This document shows positions 19,581-42,149 of a stretch of 64,000 nucleotides of DNA, one piece after another (the stretch's first letter is position 1; the number at the start of each line of letters is the position of its first letter). The translations under genes and the position numbers were made by a program. This stretch comes from Vulcanimicrobiota bacterium. GTDB taxonomy: Bacteria; Vulcanimicrobiota; Xenobia; Xenobiales; JADMJV01. The notes beneath the pieces are model-generated. The model was not told where the DNA came from, did no database searches, and worked only from the letters and a program-made list of their open reading frames with translations. Location: assembly GCA_050250895.1 (NCBI GenBank), contig JBFWNU010000005.1, positions 9,235 to 73,234 on the forward strand, written 5' to 3'.

Positions 19581-20518
19581 TCGTGGTGCGAGATGACCCG
19601 GTTGCGGCCCGCCTGCTTGGCCGCGTAGAGGGCCTGGTCGGCCCGGGCCAGTAGCTCTTCCTCGGCCAGACCGTCGACCAACCACGCCACTCCCAGGCTG
19701 ACCGTGACAGCGAGTTCTACCGGTCCGGTGGGGGAGGGGGCAGGAAAGGGGCTCTCGGCTACCAGCTGGCGAACCCGTTCGGCCAGACGGGCGGCCCCGA
19801 GGGGATCGGTCTCGGGCAGCAGCATCACGAATTCTTCGCCCCCATAGCGAGCCACCAGGTCCTCTTCGCGACTCAGGCCGATCATGCGCGCGGCCAGCTC
19901 GCGCAAAACGGCGTCTCCGGCCAGGTGGCCGTGGGTGTCGTTGATCGACTTAAAGTGGTCGGCGTCGATGAAGACCAGGCTCAGGGGGGTGCGGTGGCGG
20001 GTGGCTCGGGCCCACTCGACCCGCAAGCGCTCTTTGAAGTAGTTGCGATTGAACACGCCGGTCAACTCGTCGCGGGTGGCCGCCTCGAGCAATTGCTCTT
20101 CGTTGGCGTCGCGAAAATCGAACTTCAGGCGCACGGCCGCACCCAGCCGGATGCGCTCGCCGCCTTGCAGCAGCACCGAGTCGACCTTCTTTTCAGACAC
20201 GAAGGTGCCGTTGGTCGAGCCCAGGTCGGTGAGCACCACATTCCCATCGGGAGAGCGGGTGAACTTGGCGTGGTGGCGGCTGATACCCCGGTCGGGAAAG
20301 ACGATGTGAGCATCGTCGGCCCGCCCCACGATAGTCTCGACCAGATCCAGACGAAAGCTCTGCCCTTTGGCCGTACCAGCCAGCACCACCAGACTCGGGT
20401 GAACCGGATTACCCGGCAGAGGAGCCTCCCCCAACAGCTTCTCGGTGTCGTCGTAGCTCACAGGATTTGGTTCCCAGCCCGGTCGGGCGTACCCTGCTTT
20501 GGGATGGCGGTTTAGCAC
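19577..20518 (-). CDS. FHA domain - GGDEF diguanylate cyclase
   Basis: FHA core (LVVLAGTAKGQSFRL...GRADDAHIVF...SRHHA) followed by GGDEF (RYGGEEF). The 5' end overlaps the divergent gene as annotated, so the start is uncertain. Confidence 0.75.
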   Translation of the reverse strand: MLNRHPKAGYARPGWEPNPVSYDDTEKLLGEAPLPGNPVHPSLVVLAGTAKGQSFRLDLVETIVGRADDAHIVFPDRGISRHHAKFTRSPDGNVVLTDLGSTNGTFVSEKKVDSVLLQGGERIRLGAAVRLKFDFRDANEEQLLEAATRDELTGVFNRNYFKERLRVEWARATRHRTPLSLVFIDADHFKSINDTHGHLAGDAVLRELAARMIGLSREEDLVARYGGEEFVMLLPETDPLGAARLAERVRQLVAESPFPAPSPTGPVELAVTVSLGVAWLVDGLAEEELLARADQALYAAKQAGRNRVISHHE

Positions 20519-20552
20519 AGGGAAGCCAGGTCCCGACCCGAAGACTGTGATT

Positions 20553-22877
20553 ATGGATCGGCCGATTCGCGTGCTGGTGCTCGAAGACGACCTGGCCTTT
20601 CGCGATGTGCTAGAAGAGCTTCTGCAGGACCGGGGCTATGAGGTGGTGGCAGCCGGCCGCGGTGAAGAGGCGGTCCAGCTGGCTCGCAACGAGCCGTTCG
20701 ACCTCATTGTGGCCGACATTCGCATGGAGGGCATGAGCGGCCTGGATGCCATCGAACAGGCGCGCGAGCTGCATCCCGAGCTGGGTGCCATCGTCATTTC
20801 AGGCTATGCCAGTGAGGAAGAGACCTTGCGGGCCGTGCGTTTGAAGGTGGGCGGCTATCTCAAGAAGCCCTTCAAGATGCAGGATTTGCTCGATCGCATC
20901 AACGAGTTCGTCACCCGCCGGGCGCTCGAGTTGCGCCAGGCAAGCGAACTCGAGCGGGCCCGGCGAGCTCTGACATGGAGCCTCGAAGGATTGGGCCACC
21001 TGGGCGAGCAGTTGCATACCGGGCGGGTCTTGCGAGCCGCCGAGTTGGCCGAGGGAATGGGCCGCCAACTGGGTCTGGGGGGCGACCTGCCGCAGCAGTT
21101 GCGTTGGGCCGCCATCCTGCATCAGCTCGACCAGCTGATGGCTTTGAAGATGCCCGAGCGGGTGGTGGACGGCCTGCATATGCTGCCGGGCTTGCGGGCT
21201 TCCTTGCAGAAGAGAGAGGACGCAGCCGCCTTTGCGGCCCAGCTGTGCCGGCGTCTCGAGCCGCACGAAGGGTTGCCTGAGGCCGAGGCTCTCGAACTCG
21301 AACCACCGCTCAAAGAGGCATATCACCGGTTGGTGACCGAGGGGGAAGCGGGTCCGGTCGAGCATCAGGCCCGGGCCGGTTTGGTGCGATTGGGCAGGGC
21401 CTTAGAGCAGGCAGGCGATTTTGCCGGCGCGAGCCTGGCCTATCAGGAAGCGGCCGACGGGGCCGGAGGCGAAGCGATTCAGGCCTTGCTGGGTCTGGCT
21501 CGGTTGGCGGTGGCCCAGGGTCAACGTGAAGGACTCGAGGAATCGATCAAAGGGGTGCTGGCCAGAGCCGAGCAACTGGGTCCGGTGGCCCAGGCTACGG
21601 CTGAACTCGAAGCCACCGACATTCTCACCCGGGCCGGCCACCCGGTGGCCAACAAACTGCTGGCTCGAGCCATCGAGAGCCTGGGAGCGGTCAAGCTGCA
21701 CGTGCCTCGCGCCAGCGCCGTCCTGCGATTGGCCAACCGGGCCGAGTTGGCGGCGGAGGCAGTCGAGCAGGCTCTGGCCGTGCTGGCCGACCCCAACTTC
21801 TTGCTCGAGGTGTTCGAGCAGCTTCCGGTCCTGCTGCCCGAGTTGCTGGAATACGCCGCCCGCACCGGTCACCCGACGGCCGGCAAGTTGGCCGCCCGCT
21901 TCGTACGCGACTATCCGCAAGAGGTGACCCGAGCCTTGCGGGTGGGGCGACTGACGGTGGTCGCGCGCGGCCTGGTGTTGACCAGCCTCGAGGGCCATCA
22001 AGACGCTCCCGGCGACCTGGTCGAGGGGCTGGGCCAGGACCCCGATCCTGAACTGCGGGCGCGGGCCCTTCGGCTGGCTAGTGGCTCGGCCGCACCGCCC
22101 ATCGTGCGCGTCTATTCGCTTGGGCCCATCGAGCTTTTTCTGGGGGAGCATCGGGTCGACGAGAAAGCGTGGAAGAGCCAGAAGATCAAGTATCTATTCT
22201 GGTTTCTGGCGGCTCAGAACCAGCCGGTAGTGGTCGACGCCATCATGGAAGAATTCTGGCCCGGGCCGGTCGAGAACGCTCGCCACAACCTCAACACCTC
22301 GGTCTCCTCGGTCCGTCGCTGCCTCAAGGGCGACTCGGACGGCAACCTCGATCCGGTCTTGCGCGAGAAGGACACCCTGGCGCTAAACCCCGAGCTACCC
22401 CTCTGGCACGATCTCGACGAGCTAGAGAAAGCCCACCAGCAAGCTCTTGCCTGTCTTCAGGCCGGCAAGTCCGAGCAGGCGATGGCCCACTTTTCGCGCG
22501 TGGCTCGCCTCTACAGGGGCCCTTATCTCGAAGGCTGCTACATGGATTGGGCGGTGGCCCGTCGTACCAGTGTAGAACATCTGGCTGCCGACGCCCTCGA
22601 GCGGCTGATCGCCAGCCGGCTCGAAGTGGGGCGCCATCGCGAAGCCCTGGAATACTCCATTCGTCTGCTCGAGGTGCGCCCCGACAATCAGGAGGCTCAC
22701 CACTTCAAGATGTTGGCTCACCTGGGTCTGGGTGAGCCTGAGCAAGCCATCAAGCAGTTCGAGGCTTGCCAGAAAATGCTGGCCAACCTCTACGACATGG
22801 AGCCCACCACCGAGCTTTTGCGAACCTACCATCGAGCGCGCTACGGCTTGAGCGACTCGCCCAGCTGGGTCGGCTGA
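20553..22877 (+). CDS. Response regulator: REC + large helical/TPR-like middle + C-terminal SARP-type winged helix and BTAD
   Basis: N-terminal IRVLVLEDD...DLIVADIRM receiver; C-terminal VRVYSLGPIELFL...KYLFWFLAA (OmpR/SARP wHTH) and TPR-like BTAD region. Start moved to the internal ATG to avoid overlap with the divergent gene. Confidence 0.7.
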   Translation: MDRPIRVLVLEDDLAFRDVLEELLQDRGYEVVAAGRGEEAVQLARNEPFDLIVADIRMEGMSGLDAIEQARELHPELGAIVISGYASEEETLRAVRLKVGGYLKKPFKMQDLLDRINEFVTRRALELRQASELERARRALTWSLEGLGHLGEQLHTGRVLRAAELAEGMGRQLGLGGDLPQQLRWAAILHQLDQLMALKMPERVVDGLHMLPGLRASLQKREDAAAFAAQLCRRLEPHEGLPEAEALELEPPLKEAYHRLVTEGEAGPVEHQARAGLVRLGRALEQAGDFAGASLAYQEAADGAGGEAIQALLGLARLAVAQGQREGLEESIKGVLARAEQLGPVAQATAELEATDILTRAGHPVANKLLARAIESLGAVKLHVPRASAVLRLANRAELAAEAVEQALAVLADPNFLLEVFEQLPVLLPELLEYAARTGHPTAGKLAARFVRDYPQEVTRALRVGRLTVVARGLVLTSLEGHQDAPGDLVEGLGQDPDPELRARALRLASGSAAPPIVRVYSLGPIELFLGEHRVDEKAWKSQKIKYLFWFLAAQNQPVVVDAIMEEFWPGPVENARHNLNTSVSSVRRCLKGDSDGNLDPVLREKDTLALNPELPLWHDLDELEKAHQQALACLQAGKSEQAMAHFSRVARLYRGPYLEGCYMDWAVARRTSVEHLAADALERLIASRLEVGRHREALEYSIRLLEVRPDNQEAHHFKMLAHLGLGEPEQAIKQFEACQKMLANLYDMEPTTELLRTYHRARYGLSDSPSWVG

Positions 22878-25273
22878 TGCAGGCGCGGCTGGTGGGGGTC
22901 GTCACCGGGCTTGCCCTGCTGGTTTTGGGTGGTCTGTCACCCCTTCCCACCGATTGGCTGGCCGTGGCTTTGCTGGGCTTGTCGGCAGTCTTTCTCGAGC
23001 GCCAGGCGGTAGGTCTGGGGGGTCAGGTCCGCTTCTCGCCAGCGACAGCCGTGTATCTGGGCGCGGCCCTTTTGTCCGGGGTCGGTTGCATGGCCGCGGC
23101 CGCACTGCTCTTGCTCGAGACCGCCAGCCGCGAACCGCGTCGGGTTCTCGAGGCGCTGGCCGCTCGTTTCGGCCTGATGACCGGCATTCTGGGCGCCTTT
23201 CTGGGACCGCTGAGCGGGCAACCCTGGCTTGCCTACCTGCTGGGCCCGGCCCTCTATCTGGGAGGCACCGTCTGGCACGAGCGCCAGGTGCGAGGCGAGT
23301 TGACCGCTCGCGAGCGGCTGAGCTGGTTTCGGGCCCGTCATCAGGTGCGCCCGCTGGAGCTGGGTCTGGCGGCAGCCGCCCCGGCTCTGGCTGCGCTCTA
23401 CGCCCAGTCTCCTCTGTTGGGGTTGGTGCTGGTGCCCGTGCTGGCCACCATGCAGTTGGCCGCCGAGAACCTGGTCATCAAAAGCCGGGCCGAGACTACC
23501 GAGCAGGTCATCGAGGCCCTGGCCGACGCCCGGGTCAGTCAGCAAGAAACGGCCCGAGAACTGGCCGAAACTCGCACCCAGAAACAGTTGCTGGAGGGGT
23601 TCTCCCAACAGCTGGCTCAGAATCCGGGGCTCGAGCAGGCCAGTCGTTCGTTGGTGGCCACCGTCTTCGAGTTGATGCCGGTCACCGACGTGGCCGTCTT
23701 TCTCAATCTTCCGGGTCAGCCAGCCGACCGCCCCGAGCCGTTTTACTACCAGGTGGGAGCCGAACATCAGGCTCGCCTGCAAGGCGCCCTGCTTACCGGT
23801 TTGCGCGAGCCTCTGGTGGACGAGGCTTGCCAATCCCGCGCCTGGGTGGTGGCCGAGACGCGCCACCGCACCACTCCTCGCCTGCTGGAAGGAAATCAGG
23901 CGGCAGTAGCCTTTGCCCTGGGCGACCTGGGGGCCCTCTATGTCGGGCGCACCGAGGTCCAGCCTTTTTCCCAGGATGAGTTGCGCCGTCTCGATTGGCT
24001 TTCGACGAAAGCTCGGCTGGCCTTGGAGGTGGCTTTTCGCGATTATGAGGTGAGCCGCCAGCAAGAGCTTCAGCGTCAGGCCGTCGCGGAACTCGAGCGC
24101 CGGGTGGTGCTGTTAGGCTCCCTCACCCACGGGGCCGAAGAGATGGCGGCCACCCTCGACCTCGAGGAGTTGGGTGAGCGGCTGGCCCAGCTTCTCGCCA
24201 GGGCCATCACCCACGATCACGGGCTGCTCGTCTTCGAGTGGGAACCAGGCCAGGTGGTCCGGCGCAGCTGGGGAGGTCTCGAACTCGAGCAACACGAGTT
24301 GCTGGAGAGCGCGCGCGAGTCGGGCCGGCCGCTGCTGCTTGACGATCTCGCCAAGACGCGCTTCGAGGTGCCCTCGACTCGCAGTTTGCTGGTGAGCCCA
24401 CTGGTGGCTCACAGCCGAACCTGCGGGGCCATTTTGTTGGGCAGCCGACAGCCCAATGCCTTTGACCGAGAACAGGTGGACATGCTGTTCTTGCTCGGCT
24501 GCCAGGCCGGCATGGCCTTCTCCAACGCCCGTCTCTATCACGAGGTGGTGTTGGCCCGCCGCCAGTTGGAAGAGTCTCAAGCCCAGCTCATTCAGTCCAG
24601 CAAGATGACGGCGGTGGGACAACTGGCCGCCGGCGTAGCCCACGAACTCAACACTCCCCTCGGGGCGATTGCCCTGGCTCTCGAAGCGGCCGCTTCGAGG
24701 GTGCAAGAACGTCCCGACTCGGCTCTGCGGATGATCGGCAAGGCTCAAGAGGGAGTCGAACGCTCGCGCACCATCATCGAGCGGCTACTGGTCTACTCGC
24801 GCAAACCCAGCCATGAACTGTTCCCCGTCGAGGTGGACAAGATGGTCAAAGATACCCTCGAGTTTGTCGGCTCTCAGGTCAAGACCATGGGCGCCGAAGT
24901 CGACTTTCAGCCGGGTTGCCCACACCAGGTGCGGGGTCGTTGGCAAGAGCTCCAGCAGGTGCTGGTCAACCTGCTCCTCAACGGGATCCAGGCGATGGAA
25001 GACAAGCCGCCGGGCGAGAAAAAAATAAAGGTCAGAACCTACGATGACGACCACCACATCGTCATCGAGGTATCTGACCAGGGTGTCGGGATGACTCCCG
25101 AACAGCTGGCTCGAGCCTTCGAGCCATTCTACACAACCAAGCCGGTTGGAAAGGGCACCGGTCTGGGGCTGTGGGTTGCCCACCAGATCGTGGGCGAGCA
25201 CGGTGGCACGCTCGAGGCGCAATCCCGACCCCACCACGGATCGGTCTTCACCGTTCGCTTGCCACAAGCCTGA
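22877..25273 (+). CDS. Membrane sensor histidine kinase with GAF domains
   Basis: Multi-TM N-terminus, two GAF-like regions, HisKA (AAGVAHELNTPL), HATPase_c (GTGLGLWV). TGATG overlap with the upstream regulator. Start at internal Met 38. Confidence 0.75.
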   Translation: MQARLVGVVTGLALLVLGGLSPLPTDWLAVALLGLSAVFLERQAVGLGGQVRFSPATAVYLGAALLSGVGCMAAAALLLLETASREPRRVLEALAARFGLMTGILGAFLGPLSGQPWLAYLLGPALYLGGTVWHERQVRGELTARERLSWFRARHQVRPLELGLAAAAPALAALYAQSPLLGLVLVPVLATMQLAAENLVIKSRAETTEQVIEALADARVSQQETARELAETRTQKQLLEGFSQQLAQNPGLEQASRSLVATVFELMPVTDVAVFLNLPGQPADRPEPFYYQVGAEHQARLQGALLTGLREPLVDEACQSRAWVVAETRHRTTPRLLEGNQAAVAFALGDLGALYVGRTEVQPFSQDELRRLDWLSTKARLALEVAFRDYEVSRQQELQRQAVAELERRVVLLGSLTHGAEEMAATLDLEELGERLAQLLARAITHDHGLLVFEWEPGQVVRRSWGGLELEQHELLESARESGRPLLLDDLAKTRFEVPSTRSLLVSPLVAHSRTCGAILLGSRQPNAFDREQVDMLFLLGCQAGMAFSNARLYHEVVLARRQLEESQAQLIQSSKMTAVGQLAAGVAHELNTPLGAIALALEAAASRVQERPDSALRMIGKAQEGVERSRTIIERLLVYSRKPSHELFPVEVDKMVKDTLEFVGSQVKTMGAEVDFQPGCPHQVRGRWQELQQVLVNLLLNGIQAMEDKPPGEKKIKVRTYDDDHHIVIEVSDQGVGMTPEQLARAFEPFYTTKPVGKGTGLGLWVAHQIVGEHGGTLEAQSRPHHGSVFTVRLPQA

Positions 25274-26275: not shown

Positions 26276-26421
26276 CGTTCGCTCTCCTCGTGAGTTCTTG
26301 ATACAAGCTTACGAAGAGCGAATAAACCCCCACTAAACCACCTCAGAATCAGGTTAACAGGATGTAAATTTATCCTCTTGATGGGTTCGAACCGTGGGCT
26401 GTGACCCTTTCCTGACGGAAG

Positions 26422-27264
26422 ATGGAGGAACTGGAGTTGGATAGAAGAACGTCTTACAGGGTCATGCCCTTTCCGAGTTCGGAACGTGTCATATATGAAC
26501 GCAACCCTCTGAAAGAGGTCATTTGCGATCTCCAGTTTCCGGCGATTCTTGAGATTTCGAGTTCGAACCCAGTGGCGTTTCAGAAGGTGGTTCGGAAAGC
26601 TTATCCGCTCTTTTCTAAAGGCACCTCGGTCCATCAGGTCAACGCTCCGCCGGAGATTCCGCCCCATGTCATTCAACTCTTTCTCAGCCAGGTGGGAGAA
26701 GCTGGGCCGCCTACCTTCACGTTTAAGACAGCGGATGAAAACAGAGCTATTGTGATGTCCCAGAGCAACCTGGTTCTTCATGAGAAGGACTACAAGGAAT
26801 GGACTGAGTTCAAAGCAAATTTTTCCGACGTCGAAAAGACCTTCCGAAAGGTATACGAGCCGCCCTTCTATACTAGAATTGGCCTCCGCTACGTCAACGT
26901 CATCGACCGTGACGCTCTCGACCTAGGAGATTCCTCATGGAGCGAGATTCTAAAAACCAGGCTCTTGGGTCTTCTCGGAGGTATAAATGGAGTAGAGGTT
27001 ACCGAGACCAAAACGGAGGCACTGCTCAACTTGAATGTGACCAGCGTGAAGGGTGCTCAAGCTTATGTTCGCCACGGGCTTGTCCGGGAGCAAAGTAGCG
27101 GTCGCCCCCTCTATGTCTTGGATATAGATCTATTTACCGACGAAAGGAGTAAGCCGACAGATGTCCCCAAACGACTTGATGTTTTTTCCAGAGAAGCAGG
27201 CAACTTCTTCCGGCATGTTACGAGAGGCAAGCTTCACGAGGCTCTTGGACCGCGCTCCGGTTGA
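26422..27264 (+). CDS. Uncharacterised protein in low-GC island; N-terminal motif YERNPLKEVICDLQFP resembles the sporadically distributed TIGR04255 family (recollection, unverified)
   Basis: 280-aa ORF in a ~50% GC segment (flanks ~65%). Preceded by a 146-nt AT-richer intergenic region. Confidence 0.55.
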   Translation: MEELELDRRTSYRVMPFPSSERVIYERNPLKEVICDLQFPAILEISSSNPVAFQKVVRKAYPLFSKGTSVHQVNAPPEIPPHVIQLFLSQVGEAGPPTFTFKTADENRAIVMSQSNLVLHEKDYKEWTEFKANFSDVEKTFRKVYEPPFYTRIGLRYVNVIDRDALDLGDSSWSEILKTRLLGLLGGINGVEVTETKTEALLNLNVTSVKGAQAYVRHGLVREQSSGRPLYVLDIDLFTDERSKPTDVPKRLDVFSREAGNFFRHVTRGKLHEALGPRSG

Positions 27265-27616
27265 GAGGAGCGGACATGTCTTGCGGCGAGTCGACCTCTT
27301 GGCGAATCTGTTGATTCGACTCGCGAATGTGCCGCTGGAGCAGTTGATCAACGTTTGCTCCATCGTTGGGGAGCATACAGGCGAACCTCATTCCCCCAGT
27401 ATTTTGAGAGTAGTTCCGAGCGAGACCCTTCTGCCACGAACTCTCTCGGGCCAACCCTCGCGAGGTGCGTCTCGCCCTGAGCCACCTCTCGATGACTTTA
27501 CCCTGCCTGAGATTCACTCGAGGCCTGAGCAACTCGAGGCCGTACTGAATTTCATCGCCACTCAACCTTCGACGACCGTTTCATCTTTGTCCGACCTCTT
27601 CGAGGAAGAGGACTAG
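27161..27616 (+). CDS. Hypothetical acidic protein (C-terminus DLFEEED)
   Basis: AAAGGAG RBS 10 nt upstream of the ATG. Overlaps the upstream gene by ~100 nt in another frame. Same low-GC island. Confidence 0.4.
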   Translation: MSPNDLMFFPEKQATSSGMLREASFTRLLDRAPVERSGHVLRRVDLLANLLIRLANVPLEQLINVCSIVGEHTGEPHSPSILRVVPSETLLPRTLSGQPSRGASRPEPPLDDFTLPEIHSRPEQLEAVLNFIATQPSTTVSSLSDLFEEED

Positions 27617-27621
27617 TTGGG

Positions 27622-28290
27622 ATGTATAGCCGAGTCCTCGACGCTCAGCTAAGACAAGGCGACATTCTCGGCAATGTATACTATCCGAAGCTAGACTATT
27701 CGAAGGCCAAATTCCTAGGCTCACTTAATACCTTCCAGTCTCCCCTGGCGTTCGAACCCCAGAAGAACGGCAGCTCGCTCGTGGCTCAGCTTACTTTTTC
27801 TGAGGCTTTCTGTGTAGTCCTTAGTCAATGTTGCGACCTCGCGATCCGTGACGGGGAGCCGTGCAAGACAGATTTTATCGTATGCTGTGTTCTTCGAGAA
27901 TACAGCAGAGGGCACCAAGAGAAGGACCCTGCTCGCTTTAAGCAGGTGAGGCTGAATCCATTATCGGACTTCGGCTCTAGCTACTTTTTTGCGCGAAAGA
28001 AGCCGCTACTATCCCATTTCGTCGCTGAGCTGTCAAATACGTTCTCTGTGCCTAAGAAGTCGTATCCTGATTTGGCCGCGAGAAAGATCTTGCAGTTGAC
28101 GGACGCTGAGCGAGTGCATTTTAAGAAGAAGGTCGCTAGCTTCTTCGGAAGGGCGACCGATGAGGAGACGACTGCGAAGCTTTGGACCGAAGCTTCGGGC
28201 GCCAAGTGTGCAGCGGAAACGAAATCGGGTGTGCGCTGTTCACGCACGCCGATGCCAGGATTGCGCTTCTGCAGGCAACATCAGCCGTAA
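27622..28290 (+). CDS. Hypothetical Cys-rich protein (CC...CC cluster and C-terminal C/H zinc-ribbon-like tail)
   Basis: 222-aa ORF in the low-GC island; convergent with pilC. Confidence 0.5.
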   Translation: MYSRVLDAQLRQGDILGNVYYPKLDYSKAKFLGSLNTFQSPLAFEPQKNGSSLVAQLTFSEAFCVVLSQCCDLAIRDGEPCKTDFIVCCVLREYSRGHQEKDPARFKQVRLNPLSDFGSSYFFARKKPLLSHFVAELSNTFSVPKKSYPDLAARKILQLTDAERVHFKKKVASFFGRATDEETTAKLWTEASGAKCAAETKSGVRCSRTPMPGLRFCRQHQP

Positions 28291-28293
28291 TGT

Positions 28294-29373
28294 TTACGGC
28301 GCGAACTTGCCCACCAGAGTATACATGGGCAAGAAGACCGAGATGACGATAAAGCCCACCACCACGGCCACTCCACTCATCAGCAACGGCTCGAGCAGCG
28401 TCGACATCAGCTCGACTCGGTAGCTGACTTGCTCTTCATAGTGGCGGGCTAGAAACCCGAACATATCGGCAACGCGGGCCGATTCTTCGCCCGCGTTGGT
28501 GAGGTGCACGACCGTCCTGGGATAGATGTCGGGGCGAGTGGCGAAATGCTCCGAGAGGCTCTCTCCCTGTTCGACGGCCGAGCGCATGGGGCGCCAATCG
28601 TGGGCCACCAGGGGGCTGCCGCTGGCCTCGCTGGCCAGGCGCAGACCGGTGAGAAAATCGGTACCCGATTCGAGCATGGCCGCGGCTGCGGCCGTGAAGC
28701 GCGCCATGGCGGTGTCTCGCATCAACCCTCCCACCACCGGCACGAACAGGGCCAACCGATAGCACTCGCGGCGCACCTCTGGTGATTCGAAGTAGCCTCG
28801 CCCGAGCAACAAGACGGCCAGCAAGAAGAGACTCGCCACCGTCCAGGCCCCGGGGCTGGTGATGACGCTGGTGATCAAGACCAGCAGGCGGGTGGGCAGT
28901 GGCAGTTCGGCTCCCAGGTCGTCGAACATGTCGATGAAACTCGGCACCACGCTGACGAAGAGCAGCAGGGTGAGAAAGGCGGTCAGACTCAGGGCGAAAG
29001 CGGGATAGGTCAGGGCCGACTTGAGTTGGCGCCGGAGGTGATCGTCTTTTTCCATCCAGCCACACAGCTGGTCGAGTTGACGCACCAGTTGGCCGTTGGT
29101 CTCGCCCATGGCCACCATGCTCACGGCCAGTGAGGGGAACACCCTGGGAAAGCCGGCCATGGCGGAAGAGAGTCGATGGCCCGACGAGACCCTGGTTTGC
29201 AGCTCGGCCACCACCAGCACCAGGGTTTCGTCGCTGGCGAAGTCGACCACCACCTGGAGAGCGTCCATCAGCGAGATGCCCGAATTGAGCATCGTCGAGA
29301 GCTCGCGGTAGAAACCGATCACCACCTCGGGGCGGCAGCGGGCCCGCTTCTGCCAATAGGCCGGCTGCTCCAT
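28294..29373 (-). CDS. pilC: Type II secretion / type IV pilus platform protein GspF/PilC family, lacking the N-terminal cytoplasmic domain
   Basis: Two T2SSF-like domains (FYRELSTMLNSGISLMDAL ... ; ...FLPMYTLVG). 359 aa versus ~400 typical. Confidence 0.8.
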   Translation of the reverse strand: MEQPAYWQKRARCRPEVVIGFYRELSTMLNSGISLMDALQVVVDFASDETLVLVVAELQTRVSSGHRLSSAMAGFPRVFPSLAVSMVAMGETNGQLVRQLDQLCGWMEKDDHLRRQLKSALTYPAFALSLTAFLTLLLFVSVVPSFIDMFDDLGAELPLPTRLLVLITSVITSPGAWTVASLFLLAVLLLGRGYFESPEVRRECYRLALFVPVVGGLMRDTAMARFTAAAAAMLESGTDFLTGLRLASEASGSPLVAHDWRPMRSAVEQGESLSEHFATRPDIYPRTVVHLTNAGEESARVADMFGFLARHYEEQVSYRVELMSTLLEPLLMSGVAVVVGFIVISVFLPMYTLVGKFAP

Positions 29374-29873
29374 CAGGGTCCGCCCAGGTCCTGGAAGTTG
29401 ATCAGCTGGTAGTAATAGGGATTGGGCTGGGTGTCGTCATCTCGGCGCTGGGCCGAGAGGTCGAACTCGGCCCGGAAGCGACGTTGGGCCACTGGATGAC
29501 CTGGGTCCTGGCCCACCTGGCCCTCGCTATAGATGACCAGAATGCTAAAAGGGGGGTTGCGATAGGTCGAGTCGATAGTGACCGTATAAGAACCCACCCG
29601 GCGCCCGCTCTCGCTCATCTCTTCGCTGTAGCTGAACACGCTCTGGTCGACCTTGATGGGCGGAAAGTGCAGATCACGCTGCAGTTTGAGCAAGGCATCG
29701 GCCAGGCCGGCCTCGGCCAGCCCGCGGGCGGTCAGGGAGCGCTCGGCCAGGCTGGCCCGGCGATACTGCACGGCCCGTTTGCCCAGAAAGGTCAGGCCCA
29801 GAATCAGCAAGACCACGCAGAGCAGCAGGACCGTGACTAACAGAAAGCCGCGCTTCAAGGCTGAAAGACCCAT
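29373..29873 (-). CDS. Pilin-like / minor pseudopilin (atypical N-terminus KRGFLLVTVLL, no Glu5)
   Basis: Hydrophobic N-terminal helix after an RGF motif; ATGA overlap with pilC. Confidence 0.45.
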   Translation of the reverse strand: MGLSALKRGFLLVTVLLLCVVLLILGLTFLGKRAVQYRRASLAERSLTARGLAEAGLADALLKLQRDLHFPPIKVDQSVFSYSEEMSESGRRVGSYTVTIDSTYRNPPFSILVIYSEGQVGQDPGHPVAQRRFRAEFDLSAQRRDDDTQPNPYYYQLINFQDLGGP

Positions 29874-30418
29874 AATCTAGCTTCCGTCGAGAACTCTCGC
29901 AGCAGGTGCTTTTCCTGAAAGCTCACCTTCAGACCCACCCGGTCTTTAGCCAGAAAGGTCGTCTCGAGGCCGCGAATTCCCTCGGATACCTGGCTCTGGG
30001 CGGTCCAGCCCGGGCCACTCACCGTGCGCATCAGGCCCTGTCCCCCGACCTGATAAGTGACCGTCACCAACTGCCCCGCCGGCCGAGGGTCCCAGCTGGT
30101 GAATCCAGCCGGGCTGGGGGGCAGTCGAATCGCGGCCGGGTCCAGTCGCTCGAAACCGAGCACGTTGCTCGTACCCGCCGAGGGCGTGATCAGGCGGATG
30201 GCCGAGCCGAGTTCGGAACGCATCTGCTCGAGGCCGGTCTGCACTCCGTTGAGGGTCTGCTCTTTGCTGGCCGCCAGTCGGGTGGCCTCGGAGTATTCCC
30301 GCACCAGCACACCCACCATGCCCAGCACCATAAAGACCAGCACCATGGCCAGCATCGCCTCGGGCAACGAAAAGCCGCGTCTCACGGCGAAAGCTGCATC
30401 TCCACGGAATATCCCCAC
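29855..30418 (-). CDS. Prepilin-type N-terminal cleavage/methylation domain pseudopilin
   Basis: RRGFSLPEAMLAMVLVFMVL; the true start is probably an alternative codon just upstream of this motif. Confidence 0.6.
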   Translation of the reverse strand: MGIFRGDAAFAVRRGFSLPEAMLAMVLVFMVLGMVGVLVREYSEATRLAASKEQTLNGVQTGLEQMRSELGSAIRLITPSAGTSNVLGFERLDPAAIRLPPSPAGFTSWDPRPAGQLVTVTYQVGGQGLMRTVSGPGWTAQSQVSEGIRGLETTFLAKDRVGLKVSFQEKHLLREFSTEARLWVFQP

Positions 30419-31149
30419 CGCTCCTGCCCTCCGTAGCGGGCGCGGGCGGCCACCCGGCAGGTGCCGCTGGTGGCGACCTTGACACCGTTCGGCTTCTGCA
30501 GTTCATTGGTGAAAGTCGCGCTGCGACCGTCGCGGGTGGGCTCGATGGTTCCTTTGGTGGCGTTGGGAAAGACCGGTTCGACATACCAGTCGAAGAACAG
30601 ATCTTTAATCTCGCGACCGTCGGCGTCGTAGCCGACCGCCGTGAAGGTGACCGGATTGGTCGGGTTGACGATAGGTGGGACGCTGCCGCTGACCACGATG
30701 GGATTGCTCACTCGCCAGCCGCGGAAGCGATCGGTCAAAAGCGTGCTCAGCACGTAGCGCCCCGTGCTGTCCCAGCGCACTTCGATGATAGCCTGTTTGG
30801 CCGTGTTGCTCATCCGCCTGGGTTGAGCTGGATGAGCCAGTTCGAGTTCGCTGCCCGGGGCGAAGAGAGGCTGGTCTTGCAGGCTCACGCTGATGGAATA
30901 GCCGGGAAAGTCAGGGTCGTTTCCGCTGGGAAAGCCGCTCCAGTCGTTCTGGGTGCGGGCCCATTCCCGCAGGGCTCCCAGCCTATTCTCGGCCAACTGG
31001 GTGGCTACCACGCGCTTTTCCACCCGGGTGGTGTAGCGCAGGCCGGCCTGAAACAGGGTCGACACCATGAAGAAGGCAGCTACCAGCACGAACGAGGCGA
31101 TAATCGCCTCGATCAAGGTGTAGCCTTTGGGCTTCAAGGGCCCCACCAC
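30382..31149 (-). CDS. Pseudopilin (prepilin N-terminus KGYTLIEAIIA)
   Basis: Classical G-(F/Y)-TLIE motif followed by a hydrophobic helix. Confidence 0.65.
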   Translation of the reverse strand: MVGPLKPKGYTLIEAIIASFVLVAAFFMVSTLFQAGLRYTTRVEKRVVATQLAENRLGALREWARTQNDWSGFPSGNDPDFPGYSISVSLQDQPLFAPGSELELAHPAQPRRMSNTAKQAIIEVRWDSTGRYVLSTLLTDRFRGWRVSNPIVVSGSVPPIVNPTNPVTFTAVGYDADGREIKDLFFDWYVEPVFPNATKGTIEPTRDGRSATFTNELQKPNGVKVATSGTCRVAARARYGGQERWGYSVEMQLSP

Positions 31150-33203
31150 GACGGTGGGCCATAGACCGAGACCCTGGCGGAGTCTATTCTGGACTCGCTG
31201 CCGGCCAGGTTGACCCGCTTGAGTGTTTCAAGCGAATAGCTATCGAAAACGATCTCGTCGCTGTCGGGACTCCAGCAAAAGTCCTCGATCTCGGCCCCGG
31301 CCGTGAGCCTGGCCACTGCCTTGCCCGGCCCTGTGGGATTGTCGCCGTTGGCTCGGGTGTAGTAGAGGTCTTCGTTGTCATAGTCAGTGAAGGCAATAAA
31401 GCTGCCATCGGGAGAAAAGCGCGGGTAGGCAGCCTCGAGAGTTGACGGAGTGAGGGGAGTAGCCGGCGGCAGACCGGTGATGGTGGCGGGCACGTCGATG
31501 ATATGCACCACCCCGTCGCGAGTGAAAAGCACCTGATCGCCATTGGGGGACCAGGTGGGATATTCGTCGGCGCTCGAAGCCGGGGAGGCCGGCGGTTGGC
31601 TGAGCTGGGCAAAGCCCGTGCCATCGGGTCTGACTCTGCAGATGAAGGACTTTCCGCTGGCCGGCGAGCGGGTGAAGACGATCCAGTTGCCGGCCGGACT
31701 CCACTGGGGGCCATAGTCGTCATGGCCGGCCGGAGGGGTGAGGACCAGGCTGGGGGTGGCCGAGCCGTCGGCACGCACTTGATGAATGGCGGTCGAGCCG
31801 GCCGGAATCTCCATGGCGAAGGTCAGGCGGGTGCTGTCGGGCGACCAGCTGGGCCGGGCCTCGTAGTCGAGGTAGGTGCCCAAATCGACCAGTTTGCGCA
31901 AGCCGCTGCCGTCGTTATTCACCGCCCACACGATCTCGTCGTAGTCGTCGTAAAAGGCGACCTGGCCGCCGTCAGGCGAAAAGCACGCATAGTCGTGGGC
32001 GTGGCCGTCGCCGGGCACCGAAACCACCACCAGGCCGGTGCCGTCGCTATTGCAGATATAGATCTCGGATTCTTCGTCATCGTCGTTGGGATCCCAACCC
32101 GAGAAAGCGATGCGGTGCTTGCGGATGGTCTGGACAACCCCGTTGCTGCCCACCTGGCGGGTGTCTTCCAGGCCGGCCGGGTCACTCACGTGGCAGGTCA
32201 GGGTATAGGTGTCGCCCTGGTTGCTACCCCCCGGCGGGGTCCAGGTCCAGGTTCCCTTCCAGCCCTGACCGGGCATCCACTCCAAAGCGTTGGGCGAGGC
32301 CGCCGAGAAGCGTCCTCCTGTGCCGGTCCAGCGCACGCTCAGGGGATCTCCATCGGGATCGTTGGCGACCACCGTCAAAGTGAGATAACCGTCGCGGGTG
32401 ATCAGCGAACTGACGCCCGAGGGCAAGGCCAGCGGCTCGGGCTCGACCACCACGTCGACAATAGCCGGGGCCGAGTTGCCTCCTGCGGGCAGCGGTCGCG
32501 CCGGGGGAACAGCCGGCATGGCCAACCGCGGAGATTGGGGCACCACCAGACCGGCCGCGCCGGGACGCACCTCGACCTTGCCGGTGGCGCTGATGTGGAT
32601 CGAGTAAGGCTGGCTGAGCGCCGTCGGCGCGAAATAGCGCAAGCTGGTGGGCAAGCTGCCGCCCGGGTCGGCGGTGGGGCTGTACTCCACCCCGTGCGAA
32701 CTCAGCAGAATGAACGCATCGCCGAAGAAAGGAAGTCCATTGCTGGTGGCCTCGCCTGAGGGGGTGAAGATGACCGCGTAGTCTTCAGGCGCCGGTGGGC
32801 TCCACAGGCTGGGGTCAAAGCTGCCCAGATTGGAGCCTGTCCCGGCCTGATCCCGGCTGGCCGCGCCCCAGACTCCGACGAAGACACAAGCATCGGGATA
32901 GTGGTTCTGAAACTGAACCGAGCGCACCACCCGGGGCGCTTCGGGTCCTTCCAGCAGATAGAGCGATTGACTATGAGCGGCCGCGCCAGCATTACTGGGA
33001 AAGGCCACCGCCACGGGGGTCTGGCGGCTAATGGCTTGCTGCCGAGCAGCGCGCAACTCTTCGGCCACCTCCTCGGCCAGGCCCCGCGTCTGGGCCGTGG
33101 CCCGACTGCTGCGCAAGCTCATTAGCCCGAAGCTGGCCGTCAGGGCTACCAGCAGCATGGCCAGAGCCAACTCCAAAAGACTGAATCCGCGTCGGGCCCT
33201 CAT
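31134..33203 (-). CDS. Large pseudopilin fused to a TolB-like PD40 beta-propeller domain
   Basis: N-terminus RRGFSLLELALAMLLV, then repeated PD40-like blades (FSPDGGQVAF, SWSPDSTRLTF, WSPAGNWIVF, WSPNGDQVLF, FSPDGSFIAF). 689 aa. Confidence 0.65.
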   Translation of the reverse strand: MRARRGFSLLELALAMLLVALTASFGLMSLRSSRATAQTRGLAEEVAEELRAARQQAISRQTPVAVAFPSNAGAAAHSQSLYLLEGPEAPRVVRSVQFQNHYPDACVFVGVWGAASRDQAGTGSNLGSFDPSLWSPPAPEDYAVIFTPSGEATSNGLPFFGDAFILLSSHGVEYSPTADPGGSLPTSLRYFAPTALSQPYSIHISATGKVEVRPGAAGLVVPQSPRLAMPAVPPARPLPAGGNSAPAIVDVVVEPEPLALPSGVSSLITRDGYLTLTVVANDPDGDPLSVRWTGTGGRFSAASPNALEWMPGQGWKGTWTWTPPGGSNQGDTYTLTCHVSDPAGLEDTRQVGSNGVVQTIRKHRIAFSGWDPNDDDEESEIYICNSDGTGLVVVSVPGDGHAHDYACFSPDGGQVAFYDDYDEIVWAVNNDGSGLRKLVDLGTYLDYEARPSWSPDSTRLTFAMEIPAGSTAIHQVRADGSATPSLVLTPPAGHDDYGPQWSPAGNWIVFTRSPASGKSFICRVRPDGTGFAQLSQPPASPASSADEYPTWSPNGDQVLFTRDGVVHIIDVPATITGLPPATPLTPSTLEAAYPRFSPDGSFIAFTDYDNEDLYYTRANGDNPTGPGKAVARLTAGAEIEDFCWSPDSDEIVFDSYSLETLKRVNLAGSESRIDSARVSVYGPPSWWGP

Positions 33204-33973
33204 CGGTGCCGCCTTCTACGATCGTGTCGCTTGGGTTGGTGGCGGTCGTGGCGCGGCCGCGCACTGGTGGTTGCCGCTGAGTAGGCTGGCTCGTAGTGCC
33301 GCGGTCGGTTGCGCGAGCCCTGTTCGGGCGGAGGGTCGACGTCGAGGGGTTGGCCCACAGCCTGGGTTGGCGCGGCCTGGACCAACTGGTTGGACCGCAC
33401 TCGCCAGCGCTTGGGGCCAAGGCTTAGCTCGAGGTGATAGCGCCCGGCCGGCCGGTGGGTGGCCACCTCCACGGGAACTTCGAAGGTTCCCGTCTGGGGG
33501 TCGACCTCGGCCGCCACTTCGTAGGGCAGCTCGGGAAACACGACATGCACCTGCAGATCCGCCTGAGGCTTTTCGACCCGGCCCACCACCACCGTCTTGA
33601 GTTCGTCGGGTGGAGCAACGACCGGTTTGGGCTCACTACCACTGGTCAGCCAACGCAAGATTGACACCAGGCAGACCAGGCCCACCATGGCCGTGGCCAG
33701 CTTGTAGGAGTCGGGCATGGGTCCGCGAGGCCGTGGCAAGACCCTGGGTGGGGTAGGTGCAGGTGAGGGAGCGGCCGCGATGGCGTCGAGGGGTGACTTG
33801 GAAATCTGCTCGATGGTGAACTTACGCGAGCGCAGGGCCGTCTCGGCGGATGCCAAACTGGAGGCTTCAATAGCCCCTCTACGTTGCCGTCCCTGGCTAT
33901 CGCGCACCAAATAGTAGAATCGCAATGGGTGCCCCTGCCTTTTCAGGATACCACGCGAAACCTCTACCAGCAA
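33200..33973 (-). CDS. Protein with PilC/GspF N-terminal-like cytoplasmic domain, one TM segment and Pro-rich periplasmic region
   Basis: LRFYYLVRDSQGRQRRGAIEASSLASAETALRSRKFTIEQI resembles the PilC N-domain consensus (FxYxAxDxxGxxxxGxxxAxSxxxAxxxLxxxGxxxxxI). Confidence 0.5.
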   Translation of the reverse strand: MLVEVSRGILKRQGHPLRFYYLVRDSQGRQRRGAIEASSLASAETALRSRKFTIEQISKSPLDAIAAAPSPAPTPPRVLPRPRGPMPDSYKLATAMVGLVCLVSILRWLTSGSEPKPVVAPPDELKTVVVGRVEKPQADLQVHVVFPELPYEVAAEVDPQTGTFEVPVEVATHRPAGRYHLELSLGPKRWRVRSNQLVQAAPTQAVGQPLDVDPPPEQGSRNRPRHYEPAYSAATTSARPRHDRHQPKRHDRRRRHR

Positions 33974-33976
33974 ACG

Positions 33977-34510
33977 CTAGCCGGCGTACTTCAGTCGTTC
34001 GCCCACCAGCTCCAGGCTATGGAGCAGCAGGTTGTTGCCCTGGCGCAGCTGGTCGAACGCCCCCACGAGCCGGTCGAGTTCCTCGGACTCGGAGTCGAAA
34101 AACTCGCGGAATCCGCCGCACCCTCGATCGTAGTGGGTCAGCCCTCGGGCCAGCATGCTGGCCACCCGGCTGTGAAAGTCGTCATCCAACCCCTGGCGCT
34201 CGAGGCTGTCGAGCAGGCTCAACATCTCGGGCACGGTAGAGTCTTCAAACTCGACCAGTCGCTCGCTCATCATCTGAGCGTGCTCATGCAACTCTTCAAA
34301 GGCGTCCTCGCCGTCGAGACAGGCATCCACCAGAGTGGCGAGCTCGGTGATATACTCTGTTTCGTAATTGACCCTCGGGGCGGGAAAGTCTCCGCCCGAC
34401 AGACTGGCCATCAGGTGACCGTCCCGCGGAAGGTTCAAGAGATAGTGGTCACAGTGGGGACAGTAGCGCAGCCCGGGGGTGGTGGCACAGCATAGAACGC
34501 AATACTTCAA
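33977..34510 (-). CDS. Hypothetical protein with N-terminal zinc ribbon (CVLCC...CPHC) and acidic helical domain
   Basis: TTG start; 4-nt overlap with the glpD stop. Confidence 0.5.
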   Translation of the reverse strand: MKYCVLCCATTPGLRYCPHCDHYLLNLPRDGHLMASLSGGDFPAPRVNYETEYITELATLVDACLDGEDAFEELHEHAQMMSERLVEFEDSTVPEMLSLLDSLERQGLDDDFHSRVASMLARGLTHYDRGCGGFREFFDSESEELDRLVGAFDQLRQGNNLLLHSLELVGERLKYAG

Positions 34511-36471
34511 GCCAGATTATTTCGGGCATAAAACGCCTGGGCCTGCTCCAGCTCTTTGGCCTTCTGCTGGTCGCTCCAGCCGAGCGTCTCGGCCATCAGG
34601 TCGACGGTGCGCGGTAGAGCCCTCACGGTGGCCTTCTCGTCGATAAATGACAGGCGAGTGCGGCGCGAGAGCACGTCCACGGCCGTGGTGGCGTACTCGT
34701 GCTTGCAGGCGTAGACCACTTCGGCTTCGAGATAGGGATGCGTCGGAGCCAGCCGCTCGCCCAGTCCGTCCTTGGCCAGGTCGGCTACGGCCAGGGCCCG
34801 GTCCCCGTAATTGTGAGCCAGGTGGTCGGCCACGTCATGGGGCAGCCCATAGCTTTGCTCCAGTTGACCCGTCAGTGATTCCGAGAAGCCATGGGCACCG
34901 ATCAACTTGGCGCTGGCCCGCTGCGAAGGCTGGGCCTCGAGATGGCCGTGCTCGACCGCTTCCTGGACCACTTCTTCGCCCATCCGTCCAAAGCTGGTCC
35001 ACTTGCCGCCGCCGATGGTGATCAGGCCTGAATCCGACACGTCGATGATATGCTTGCGCGAAATCGACGCGGTGGCGCCCGGCTTGACCTTCTCGTGGGG
35101 GTCGCGCACCAGGGGACGGATGCCCGTCCACACCGAGGTGACGTCGCTGCGGCCGATCTGTTGCTCGGGGTCGAGGTAGCCGTTGGCCAGGTCGATGAGA
35201 TACTTGACGTGCTCTTCGCTGGTGCGGGGCTCGGTGGTGATTTCGGTCTTCTCTTCGGTGGTGCCGATGAGGGTGCCGCCTTCGAAAGGCTTGAAGAAAG
35301 CCACGCTGCCGTTGGGAGCCTCGGGAACCAACAGACCTTCGCGCATCTTGAGCTTGTCGACGAACACGTGGGTGCCGGCACTGGGCACTACCAGTTCCGG
35401 CGTCTGTGGATCGTCCATCTTGCGAATGCCGTCGATGAAGGGGCCGGTGGCGTTGATCACCGTCTTGGCCCGCACCGTGAAGGTCTCGTCGCTGCGGGTG
35501 TCCTGCACGCGGGCGCCGACGACCTTGCCATCCTCTTTGACCAGGTCCAACACCTTGACGTAGTTGGCCACGGCGGCCCCGTGGGCCGCAGCCGTGGTGG
35601 CCAGGCCGACATTCATGCGCGAGTCGTTGAACTGTCCATCCGAGTAGGCCACCCCGCCGCGCAGACCCTCCGACTTGACCTCGGGCAGCCGCTCTTTGAC
35701 GGCGCTGGCCGAGAGCATTTTGGTGGCTTCGAGCCCGGCCTGTCCGGCGATGCGGTCATACAGCCAAAGGCCGGCGTAAAAGTAGGGCAACTCGGCGTAA
35801 GAGTAGACCGGGGTGATCAGGCGAATCTCGTCGGTCAGATGAGGAGCCATTTCCAGGAACGCTTTGCGCTCGTGCAGGCCTTCTTTGACCAGGCCGTATT
35901 GCTCGGCGTCGAGCTTCTTGACCGCCTTCTCCAGATAGCGAACCCCGCCGTGAATCAGCTTGGTGCTCTTGCTGGAGGTTCCCGAGGCGAAGTCGCCGGC
36001 TTCGACACAGGCAACCTTTAGCCCACGACGGGCCGCCTCGAGGGTGGCCCCGGCGCCGGTGGCCCCGCCGCCGATGACCAGTACGTCGAACTCTTCGCCG
36101 GACTTGAGGCGGTCGAGTTGCTCGGTGCGGGTGGGAACGACCCAGTTCTGCTCGGGCATCTGACGAATTTCGTCGAGACTAAATTGCTTGGGGGCTGGGG
36201 GAGCCGCGGGGGCAGTGGCGGCTGCGATGGCCGCGCCCGCGATTGCTCCTACTGCGGCTGCTCCCACCTGGCCTACCCAGCCGAGCTGTGAAAGCAAGGC
36301 GCTGGCGGCCAATCCGGTGGCCCCACCAAGGGTAGCTCCGGTGAGCAGCCGAGGGGTGCTGGGACGACTGCCCAGGCTGACCTGGTCGGTCGGCTGAGTG
36401 GCTGGCTGGCTGCTGGCCGCGGCCGGTCGGTAGGTGGGAACCTGGCTATTGAGAAGAGCTTGGACTTTCAC
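34507..36471 (-). CDS. glpD: FAD-dependent glycerol-3-phosphate dehydrogenase (GlpD / mitochondrial GPD2-like) with low-complexity N-terminal extension
   Basis: FDVLVIGGGATGAG dinucleotide fold, GGKWTSFGRMGEE, DAO C-terminal domain. GTG start 10 nt downstream of the conserved 23-nt element. Confidence 0.85.
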   Translation of the reverse strand: MKVQALLNSQVPTYRPAAASSQPATQPTDQVSLGSRPSTPRLLTGATLGGATGLAASALLSQLGWVGQVGAAAVGAIAGAAIAAATAPAAPPAPKQFSLDEIRQMPEQNWVVPTRTEQLDRLKSGEEFDVLVIGGGATGAGATLEAARRGLKVACVEAGDFASGTSSKSTKLIHGGVRYLEKAVKKLDAEQYGLVKEGLHERKAFLEMAPHLTDEIRLITPVYSYAELPYFYAGLWLYDRIAGQAGLEATKMLSASAVKERLPEVKSEGLRGGVAYSDGQFNDSRMNVGLATTAAAHGAAVANYVKVLDLVKEDGKVVGARVQDTRSDETFTVRAKTVINATGPFIDGIRKMDDPQTPELVVPSAGTHVFVDKLKMREGLLVPEAPNGSVAFFKPFEGGTLIGTTEEKTEITTEPRTSEEHVKYLIDLANGYLDPEQQIGRSDVTSVWTGIRPLVRDPHEKVKPGATASISRKHIIDVSDSGLITIGGGKWTSFGRMGEEVVQEAVEHGHLEAQPSQRASAKLIGAHGFSESLTGQLEQSYGLPHDVADHLAHNYGDRALAVADLAKDGLGERLAPTHPYLEAEVVYACKHEYATTAVDVLSRRTRLSFIDEKATVRALPRTVDLMAETLGWSDQQKAKELEQAQAFYARNNLA

Positions 36472-41830: not shown

Positions 41831-42149
41831 TCACAAAGCCACCTGTCGTCTTCCAGCTGGAAGTCGTCCTGAAAATGTTCTGATTCCCTAACATTTGCAA
41901 TGAGAGGATTGTCCCCGAAGATTACTCCCAACTTCAATCGGGGCCACAACGTCCATGATGGGCGCTTTCAGCCCTCCCCGTACCGTCCATGGCTGGCGAA
42001 GTCGTTTTTCAGTCAGAGACCCTGCTCGCAGCCTCCTGTGACACGAGCCGGAAACCCAATAACCAAGCCGTTTCGTCGCGTTGATCCGGGCCGGATTCTT
42101 GAGTAAAATGGGATCATTCCTTGATTCTTCTTCTACTCGGAGGTCGGCT

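Follow-up and report, generated by a model that had tools for sequence, protein, structure and literature searches.

Canonical GspF/PilC proteins, the platform proteins of type IV filament systems, carry a small N-terminal domain (N-domain). In the 64-kilobase (kb) window analyzed here, the whole stretch of 64,000 nucleotides from contig JBFWNU010000005.1 of a Vulcanimicrobiota (Eremiobacterota) bacterium (assembly GCA_050250895.1), this domain is absent from the platform protein and is encoded instead on a separate bitopic membrane protein, which we call FN. Both genes belong to a six-gene cassette that also encodes four pseudopilins, H, I, J and K, the first of which is fused to a β-propeller. 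The data below establish the relocation of the domain and the composition of the cassette. We consider it probable, at roughly 0.6, that the cassette represents the "tip complex plus platform" of a type IV filament system, a superfamily that unites type IV pili (T4P) with the type II secretion system (T2SS), with the motor encoded elsewhere and the N-domain acting in trans. A preliminary description of this DNA had called the arrangement an unusual split of PilC. The separation is real, and the literature that we searched contains no description of a GspF/PilC N-domain on a separate bitopic protein, but the arrangement is better named a relocation of the N-domain to a bitopic protein that has its own conserved, predicted periplasmic domain.

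A platform protein and its N-domain in separate genes

The six open reading frames (ORFs) are arranged head to tail between 28294 and 33973, all on the minus strand, and encode, by increasing coordinate, 359, 166, 187, 255, 689 and 257 amino acids (aa). They are transcribed in the order FN, H, I, J, K, GspF/PilC, such that four genes separate FN from GspF/PilC, and the row occupies 28294-33925 when the start of FN is placed at 33925 (see below). Neighboring stop and start codons overlap by 1-37 nt, the GC content at third codon positions (GC3) is 0.73-0.83 in all six genes, and the row forms one translationally coupled operon. Since a scan of the row for promoters and terminators gave no difference from shuffled sequence, we drew the operon boundaries from the gene overlaps only. 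A second assembly, GCA_050183855.1, encodes an identical copy of one of the window proteins.

The platform protein (359 aa; 28294..29373, minus strand) has two T2SSF domains (PF00482, E = 1e-50; 171 bits against a gathering cutoff of 25.2), which place it in the GspF/PilC superfamily. The first of them spans residues 21-144, and the protein begins only ~20 residues before it. Its best match in NCBIfam, the GspF model TIGR02120, aligned over positions 63-397 of 401 (230 bits against a cutoff of 424), whereas the Thermus PilC model (206 bits) aligned from position 70 of 406 and the Myxococcus PilC model from position 82 of 419. The PilC equivalogs NF052607 and NF052606 gave 206 and 198 bits, respectively, against cutoffs of 700 in both cases, and the protein thus lies outside the GspF and PilC equivalogs. 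The ComGB model aligned over almost its full length (positions 6-331 of 332) and gave the weakest platform match, 112 bits. Because the ATG of the platform gene overlaps the stop codon of K, no upstream coding space is left for an N-domain. The 39 closest database relatives of GspF (P0004-P0042; 32-95% identity, mostly 330-365 aa) have PF00482 only, whereas almost all of the more distant canonical GspF/PilC proteins (~400 aa) have both PF00482 and PF28597 (T2SSF_N). The preliminary description had reported that this protein lacks the usual N-terminal domain, and the model alignments and the overlap with K bear this out; the absent part, however, is the small N-domain of ~45 aa that Pfam names T2SSF_N, and not Cyto1.

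The FN gene lies at the other end of the row. Its ORF reaches a TTG at 33973 (257 aa), but the ortholog P0002, whose first 40 residues are identical to the window sequence, begins with MRFYYLVRD, which corresponds to a TTG at 33925. We therefore place the start there, and the gene most likely spans 33200..33925 on the minus strand and encodes 241 aa. At the start of FN (33809-33925), the NCBI call (P0001, 218 aa, 100% identical) is about 23 codons short and so loses half of T2SSF_N. Several representatives of the FN family look likewise truncated, and automated annotation therefore hides the N-domain.

The piece that the platform protein lacks is the piece that FN has. In the NCBIfam search, FN residues 3-45 aligned to positions 1-42 of the GspF model, exactly the part absent from the platform protein, and also to positions 4-45 of the Thermus PilC model (E about 1e-3). 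We built a local N-domain hidden Markov model (HMM) solely from 76 canonical GspF/PilC N-termini; among 2720 six-frame ORFs from the window and seven related loci it ranked the FN ORF first (E = 2e-6, positions 1-40) and the FN orthologs next, all other ORFs having E >= 0.7. A profile-profile comparison of FN N-termini with canonical N-termini by hhalign gave a probability of 97.2% (E = 3e-11, 40 columns). The canonical HMM matched 24 FN-family proteins and none of the 39 short-clade GspF proteins, and the reciprocal HMM, made from FN N-termini, matched the extreme N-termini of canonical GspF proteins and again no short-clade GspF. Precomputed Pfam annotations assign T2SSF_N (PF28597) to P0002, P0124-P0126, P0128-P0131 and P0133, some of these matches being marked "weak"; a local copy of Pfam gave no match for the 257-aa ORF, and the name T2SSF_N comes only from the precomputed annotations.

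The predicted structure agrees with these assignments. In an AlphaFold2 (AF2) model of FN made with 13 sequences, the N-domain (residues 1-44, 33794..33925, predicted cytoplasmic) consists of three strands (2-8, 14-20 and 37-42) and one helix (24-32), with a predicted local distance difference test score (pLDDT) of about 90. This β-β-α-β arrangement is the fold reported for the N-domain of Klebsiella PulF, for which YkzG/RNA polymerase (RNAP) epsilon is the reported PDB neighbor (PMC10790770). Foldseek returned the same neighbor for the FN N-domain (YkzG/RNAP epsilon 4njc_F, TM-score 0.73; also 7ckq_H and 6wvk_E), with E values that are not significant. The N-domain is also the most conserved part of FN, with 27 of the first 45 positions invariant. 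By sequence and by predicted fold, FN belongs with T2SSF_N, and these comparisons show its first ~45 residues to be a GspF/PilC N-domain, as the preliminary description had supposed from its resemblance to PilC.

Could the likeness nevertheless be convergent, or too weak to mean homology? FN would then be an accessory membrane protein of unrelated origin, and the short GspF would simply have lost a dispensable domain. The domain is only ~45 aa long, its E values for single sequences, 1e-3 to 2e-6, are modest, PulF still works without it, and three related loci (L005, L006 and L007) have no detectable N-domain near the module. We nonetheless regard this explanation as very improbable, given the profile-profile match (97%, E = 3e-11), the reciprocal matches at the exact N-termini of canonical GspF proteins, a predicted fold and PDB neighbor shared with the PulF N-domain, the complementary distribution of the domain (24 FN proteins against 0 of 39 GspF proteins) and its standing as the best conserved part of FN.

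Beyond the N-domain, the AF2 model contains a Pro-rich linker, a transmembrane (TM) helix (residues 73-94, 33644..33709), a seven-strand β-sandwich (residues 108-189, 33359..33604) and a disordered tail. A charge of +2 flanks the TM helix on its N side and one of -2 on its C side, from which we predict an N-in topology, with the N-domain in the cytoplasm and the sandwich in the periplasm. The sandwich was modeled with a pLDDT of 84-90; its best fold match in the PDB was the transthyretin-like domain 5aq0_B, and the Foldseek search with the FN model returned no GspC or PilP. The disordered C-terminal tail is basic (net charge +8). Of what the preliminary description had said of the 257-aa ORF, the PilC-N-like part and the TM helix stand, but the start moves inward and the tail is not just Pro-rich, being predicted to comprise the folded sandwich and the basic disordered segment.

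Conservation and gene orders of the module

We collected related loci via the GspF and FN families, mapped them by BLAST and HMMs, and obtained 7 loci from a genome scan with a narrow GspF alignment. We found the module in about 12 loci, with its genes in at least four different orders. The window has FN-H-I-J-K-F (F, the GspF/PilC gene), all co-directional. In L001, L008, L010, L015 and L016, FN-H-I-J-K faces a convergent F; L003/L004 have F-FN-H-I-J-K, as does L009 with a 1.6-kb gap; and in L006 and L011, I-J-K-H-FN faces F. L005 and L007 have H-I-J-K-F with no FN within 10 kb. Thus, FN adjoins the module in the window, L001, L003/4, L006, L008-L011, L015 and L016, and an HMM of the sandwich domain detected this domain in L001, L003/4, L006 and L008-L011. 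The FN gene of L003 is split between two ORFs. The ortholog in L006 (169 aa, 10988-11497) keeps the TM helix and the sandwich, its N-domain being eroded or mostly lost. The comparisons show FN to be a distinct protein family that usually bears the N-domain. The family is tiny, with 26 cluster representatives at 50% identity among 1.84e9 proteins, and two metagenome scans with FN alignments gave no matches.

The gene orders also bear on whether the separation is an artefact of assembly, frameshift or annotation, or a sign of a decaying pseudogene cluster. The data come from metagenome-assembled genomes (MAGs), the NCBI start of FN is wrong and the FN gene of L003 is in two pieces. Yet FN and GspF are four genes apart in the window and stand in other relative positions elsewhere; the ORFs are intact, overlapping and conserved at 25-57% identity across ~12 independent assemblies; and the fused gene, which we sought in close relatives, was found in none of the 39 closest relatives of GspF. 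As the gene orders differ among loci, we exclude a frameshift or assembly artefact, and an artefactual origin of the cluster in general is hardly credible.

Several further features of the related loci deserve mention. A conserved membrane protein of 140-144 aa with the C-terminus ...LARYAPQ lies beside the module in L001 (16090-16512), L004 (16315-16749), L015 (4366-4797) and L016 (9344-9778); it has no homolog anywhere in the window. The module was also found in MAGs labeled "Selenomonadaceae" (L008) and "Burkholderiales" (L011). L008 has the synteny of Eremiobacterota loci, with a response regulator-BTAD protein beside GspF, and both MAGs may be mislabeled or chimeric bins. In an Armatimonadetes MAG (L012; 7917-10948 and 12962-14593), the gene for a related short GspF follows that for an FHA-domain protein, and the two may be fused (an ORF of 648 aa has an N-terminus that is FHA-like). 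Close by are another GspF-like gene and one for a typical major pilin of 139 aa. In other phyla, T2SSF_N may be replaced by different N-terminal modules.

Pseudopilins and absent machinery

Between FN and the platform gene lie the four prepilin-type genes that the preliminary description had noted. Only three canonical prepilin motifs occur in the window (the slash marks the predicted cleavage site): RRG/FSLLE in H, KG/YTLIE in I and RRG/FSLPE in J, each in a protein that has the G/[FY]xLxE pattern followed by a hydrophobic helix of ~20 residues. Pfam N_methyl scores for H, I and J (13.7-18.8) were below the gathering threshold of 21.2, while TIGR02532 scored 17.9 for H against a cutoff of 16.3.

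H (689 aa; 31134..33203, minus strand) is a modular pseudopilin in which a class III signal peptide is followed by a GspH/FimU-like pilin module, an immunoglobulin (Ig)-like domain (Big_9, residues 268-351; 32151-32402) and a six-blade propeller of the PD40/TolB type (31137-32126). Its N-terminus gave weak matches of the GspH/XpsH/ComGD type (TIGR01708 E = 4e-8, below cutoff). The propeller, also proposed earlier from the sequence, gave four PD40 matches and a TolB match (E = 1e-17), DPPIV_N also being returned; six [WF]SP[DNA][GS] blade motifs are spaced 45-50 residues apart, and the only PDB sequence relative was the TolB-like protein 2ojh. Pfam and NCBIfam scans of H returned no PilY1 family (IPR008707 propeller), which sets H apart from the PilY1/PilC tip adhesins. 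Every module locus has an ortholog of H, 660-770 aa long.

I (255 aa; 30382..31149, minus strand) has weak PilV/GspI matches in NCBIfam and, in all loci, a conserved extra C-terminal β-rich domain of ~100 aa with an FFxWY motif; its orthologs are present in all module loci. The cassette thus holds two modular pilins. J (187 aa; 29855..30418, minus strand) is the pseudopilin with the RRG/FSLPE motif. K (166 aa; 29373..29873, minus strand) departs from the other three: its motif, KRG/FLLVT, has Thr instead of Glu at position +5, and its N-terminus weakly matches GspK (E = 1.5e-4). The absence of Glu5 is kept across the orthologs, of which that in L012 matches PilX_N. An H-I-J-K priming or tip complex is common to T2SS and the type IVa pilus (T4aP), where the PilY1 propeller caps it, and a tip complex capped by a subunit without Glu5 is established (PMC10191384). 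We assign H, I, J and K to such a complex because three of them are prepilins with Glu5 and one is without, with K as its presumed cap.

The minor pilins and the platform might instead belong to a competence-type pilus for DNA uptake, with a ComGB-like platform, ComGD-GG-like minor pilins and a basic FN tail that would bind DNA in the periplasm. ComGB naturally lacks the N-domain and its model aligns to the platform protein over positions 6-331 of 332, H, I and J have weak ComGD/GF/GE matches, and the FN tail carries a net charge of +8. But of the platform models ComGB matched least well, with 112 bits where GspF had 230, the ComG matches have E values of 1e-4 to 0.09, comGA, comGC, comEA and comEC are not nearby, and a TolB-type propeller has no known role in such a system. 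We consider a DNA-uptake function improbable.

The earlier statement that the operon lacks an ATPase and a secretin extends to the whole window, in which no Walker A motif of the GspE/PilB/PilT type occurs. No ATPase or secretin Pfam match was obtained among about 55 window ORFs scanned, the 64-kb window has no further prepilin and no peptidase family, and the 10 kb beyond its left end hold no pilus genes. Likewise, the 10 kb around each module locus hold no GspE-type Walker A motif, and neither the window nor these 10-kb flanks contain an ATPase, secretin, peptidase or major pilin. By contrast, in L013 and L014, two control loci whose PilC is canonical, PilB and PilT lie directly upstream. 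Vulcanimicrobium alpinus, the phylum's sole cultured member, is a piliated diderm that has pilMDTC and uses type IV pili to move (PMC9758169), and it is therefore plausible that the motor and the peptidase are encoded elsewhere in the genome.

These absences bear on a T2SS-like alternative, in which H-I-J-K would form the tip of a short periplasmic endopilus, the propeller would engage substrates or the secretin and not serve as an adhesin at the surface, and FN would be a GspC/PilP-like linker of the inner-membrane platform to the periplasmic machinery. A bitopic protein with a periplasmic β-sandwich has the general shape shared with the GspC HR and PilP domains, and FN is bitopic with a sandwich predicted to be periplasmic; in addition, GspF is the best match of the platform protein, at 230 bits compared with 206 for Thermus PilC, and the matches of H and K are to GspH/XpsH and GspK, respectively. 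All of these matches, however, miss the equivalog cutoffs by a wide margin (230 bits where the cutoff is 424), H-I-J-K sets occur in both T2SS and T4aP, Foldseek returned no GspC or PilP for FN, and GspD, GspE, GspC/L/M and GspG are absent from the window and from within 10 kb of 12 related loci. The phylum-level evidence concerns type IV pili only. A T2SS-like system is thus possible but, on balance, unlikely; the phylum evidence and the analogy with PilY1 lead us to favor a surface pilus over an endopilus or a DNA-uptake pilus.

Flanking genes, proposed mechanism and related systems

Beyond the platform gene, at lower coordinates and on the plus strand, lie a gene for a response regulator-TPR-BTAD protein (20499..22877) and one for a GAF-HisKA-HATPase sensor kinase (22766..25273; true start probably downstream of 22877), both recognized by Pfam. 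Orthologs of the response regulator-TPR-BTAD protein (50-57% identity) abut GspF in L001-L004, L008-L010, L015 and L016. The GAF histidine kinase is paired with it in related loci too, and the pair flanks GspF in Eremiobacterota loci; the response regulator-TPR-BTAD protein is probably a regulator of the module. Two minus-strand ORFs picked by their high GC3 (22937-24064 and 24113-24748) were rejected as spurious, being antisense to the GAF kinase gene; they even give BLAST matches to the antisense strand of orthologous kinase genes.

Between the kinase gene and GspF lies a low-GC island (26300-28290; GC 0.535 against about 0.63-0.65 in the flanks) with three plus-strand ORFs of 280, 151 and 222 aa, which gave no Pfam and no PADLOC match. 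Most related loci have no equivalent of the island, the regulator abutting GspF directly, and the island is probably a recent insertion. Directly upstream of FN, a 177-aa gene (33977-34510), whose product begins with a CxxC...CxxC N-terminus and gave no family and no PADLOC match, overlaps by 4 nt a gene for a GlpD-type glycerol-3-phosphate dehydrogenase (34507-36471) with an Ala/Gly-rich, probably membrane-anchoring N-terminal extension of ~120 aa. We rejected both as parts of the module, as they are absent from that place in every related locus. Farther away, and unrelated to the cassette, are two RecQ-like helicase genes within 7 kb (7055-8428 and 13651-15546) and a gene for a DUF222/HNH endonuclease (42081-43337).

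For the cassette as a tip complex plus platform, we infer the following mechanism. H, I, J and K would be cleaved by a prepilin peptidase predicted to be encoded elsewhere and would then assemble on the GspF oligomer as a priming or tip complex that K, without Glu5, would cap. The Ig-like domain and the six-blade propeller of H would be displayed at the fiber tip as a ligand-binding head, a role suggested by analogy. Beneath it, the fiber would grow by the action of a PilB/GspE-type ATPase and from a major pilin, both encoded elsewhere. The N-domain would come in trans from FN, whose TM anchor would keep it at the membrane and tie it to the periplasmic domain, and the adjacent response regulator-BTAD protein and GAF kinase may control expression. 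In PulF, a flexible linker carries the N-domain, which can be dispensed with although full efficiency requires it; no co-evolution with the core is seen, and the domain binds anionic lipids in simulations (PMC10790770). Provision in trans fits these data.

Several points weigh against this interpretation. The single-sequence signal for T2SSF_N is weak, as both the "weak" marks on the precomputed matches and the silence of the local Pfam copy indicate, and the link of the FN N-domain to GspF or the ATPase is drawn indirectly. Nor does this reading account for the strongly basic C-terminal tail on a predicted periplasmic domain. The loci L005 and L007, with H-I-J-K-F and no FN within 10 kb, and L006, with its eroded N-domain, suggest that the N-domain may be dispensable, as in PulF. 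A single-sequence AF2 model of H reached a pLDDT of just 36.5, so that the propeller is known from its sequence. Finally, with no major pilin, ATPase, peptidase or secretin located in the window or in the 10 kb beyond its left end, the type of fiber and its exposure at the surface are unproven.

Parts of the system have precedents. PulF, which consists of N-domain, Cyto1, TM and Cyto2 (PMC10790770), resembles it in its two T2SSF domains, in the signature and fold of the N-domain and in having that domain positively charged and beside the membrane; here, unlike in PulF, the N-domain is carried by the separate bitopic FN with its own TM helix and β-sandwich, and the platform protein falls far below the GspF/PilC equivalog cutoffs. 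The fission of a platform into two genes is known from TadB/TadC of Tad (T4c) pili (PMC10191384), but there it parted the T2SSF halves, whereas here the halves stay together and only the N-domain has moved. ComGB of Com pili, by its model alignment, is likewise a platform of ~330 aa without an N-domain, although the window protein is closer to GspF/PilC. To our knowledge, no companion protein bearing the N-domain is known from Com systems.

H resembles modular type IV pilins such as PilB and PilC of Streptococcus sanguinis, in which other domains are grafted onto an N-terminal pilin module (Raynaud et al. 2021, PMC8179133). Dataset S1 of that study lists IPR012902-IPR022346-IPR011659 in 2 proteins and IPR012902-IPR011659 in 4. 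By its prepilin motif, its Big_9 domain and its four PD40 matches with a TolB match, H is a modular pilin, but the catalogued PD40 pilins are uncharacterized, and H adds the Ig-like domain and the conserved H-I-J-K-F-FN cassette. We take the first of the listed architectures to be pilin-GspH-PD40 and the second pilin-PD40. PilY1, a non-pilin propeller protein that sits on PilHIJK in T4aP and to whose role we liken that of the H propeller, offers a further parallel: with PilHIJK or FimU-PilVWX of Myxococcus xanthus and Pseudomonas aeruginosa it likewise combines four minor pilins and a propeller head in a cluster apart from the motor genes. Unlike PilY1, the propeller of H is of the PD40/TolB type and covalently fused to the pilin, and the platform gene lies in the same cluster. 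The Verru_Chthon cassettes (TIGR02596 and relatives) also stand alone and encode four prepilin-type proteins, but H is not a member, scoring only 20 bits against their protein D (TIGR02596, cutoff 70). Thus, the propeller-pilin architecture (catalogued among modular pilins), platforms without an N-domain (ComGB) and platform fission (TadB/TadC) were already known.

More speculatively, FN might be a new platform subunit that, by joining the N-domain and the periplasmic β-sandwich in one transmembrane chain, relays the state of the periplasmic fiber base to the interface of platform and ATPase, and the cassette an exchangeable cartridge that redirects the housekeeping PilB/PilT to a second, propeller-tipped fiber under the adjacent two-component system. 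We put this forward as a rather doubtful extension of the tip-complex-plus-platform reading.

Among the core parts of type IV filament machines, the platform protein is the one least understood, and its N-domain has been without a known partner. The stable encoding of this domain on another membrane protein shows that it is an independent, membrane-tethered module under strong selection, tied here to a periplasmic domain, and makes the lineage a natural separation-of-function system for experimental work. The cassette is also a conserved example of a tip propeller that is fused to the H pilin rather than provided by a separate PilY1-like protein. If the idea of FN as a relay and of the cassette as a cartridge were true, the long-unknown function and partner of the N-domain would become directly testable, since the N-domain is already naturally separated from the platform.

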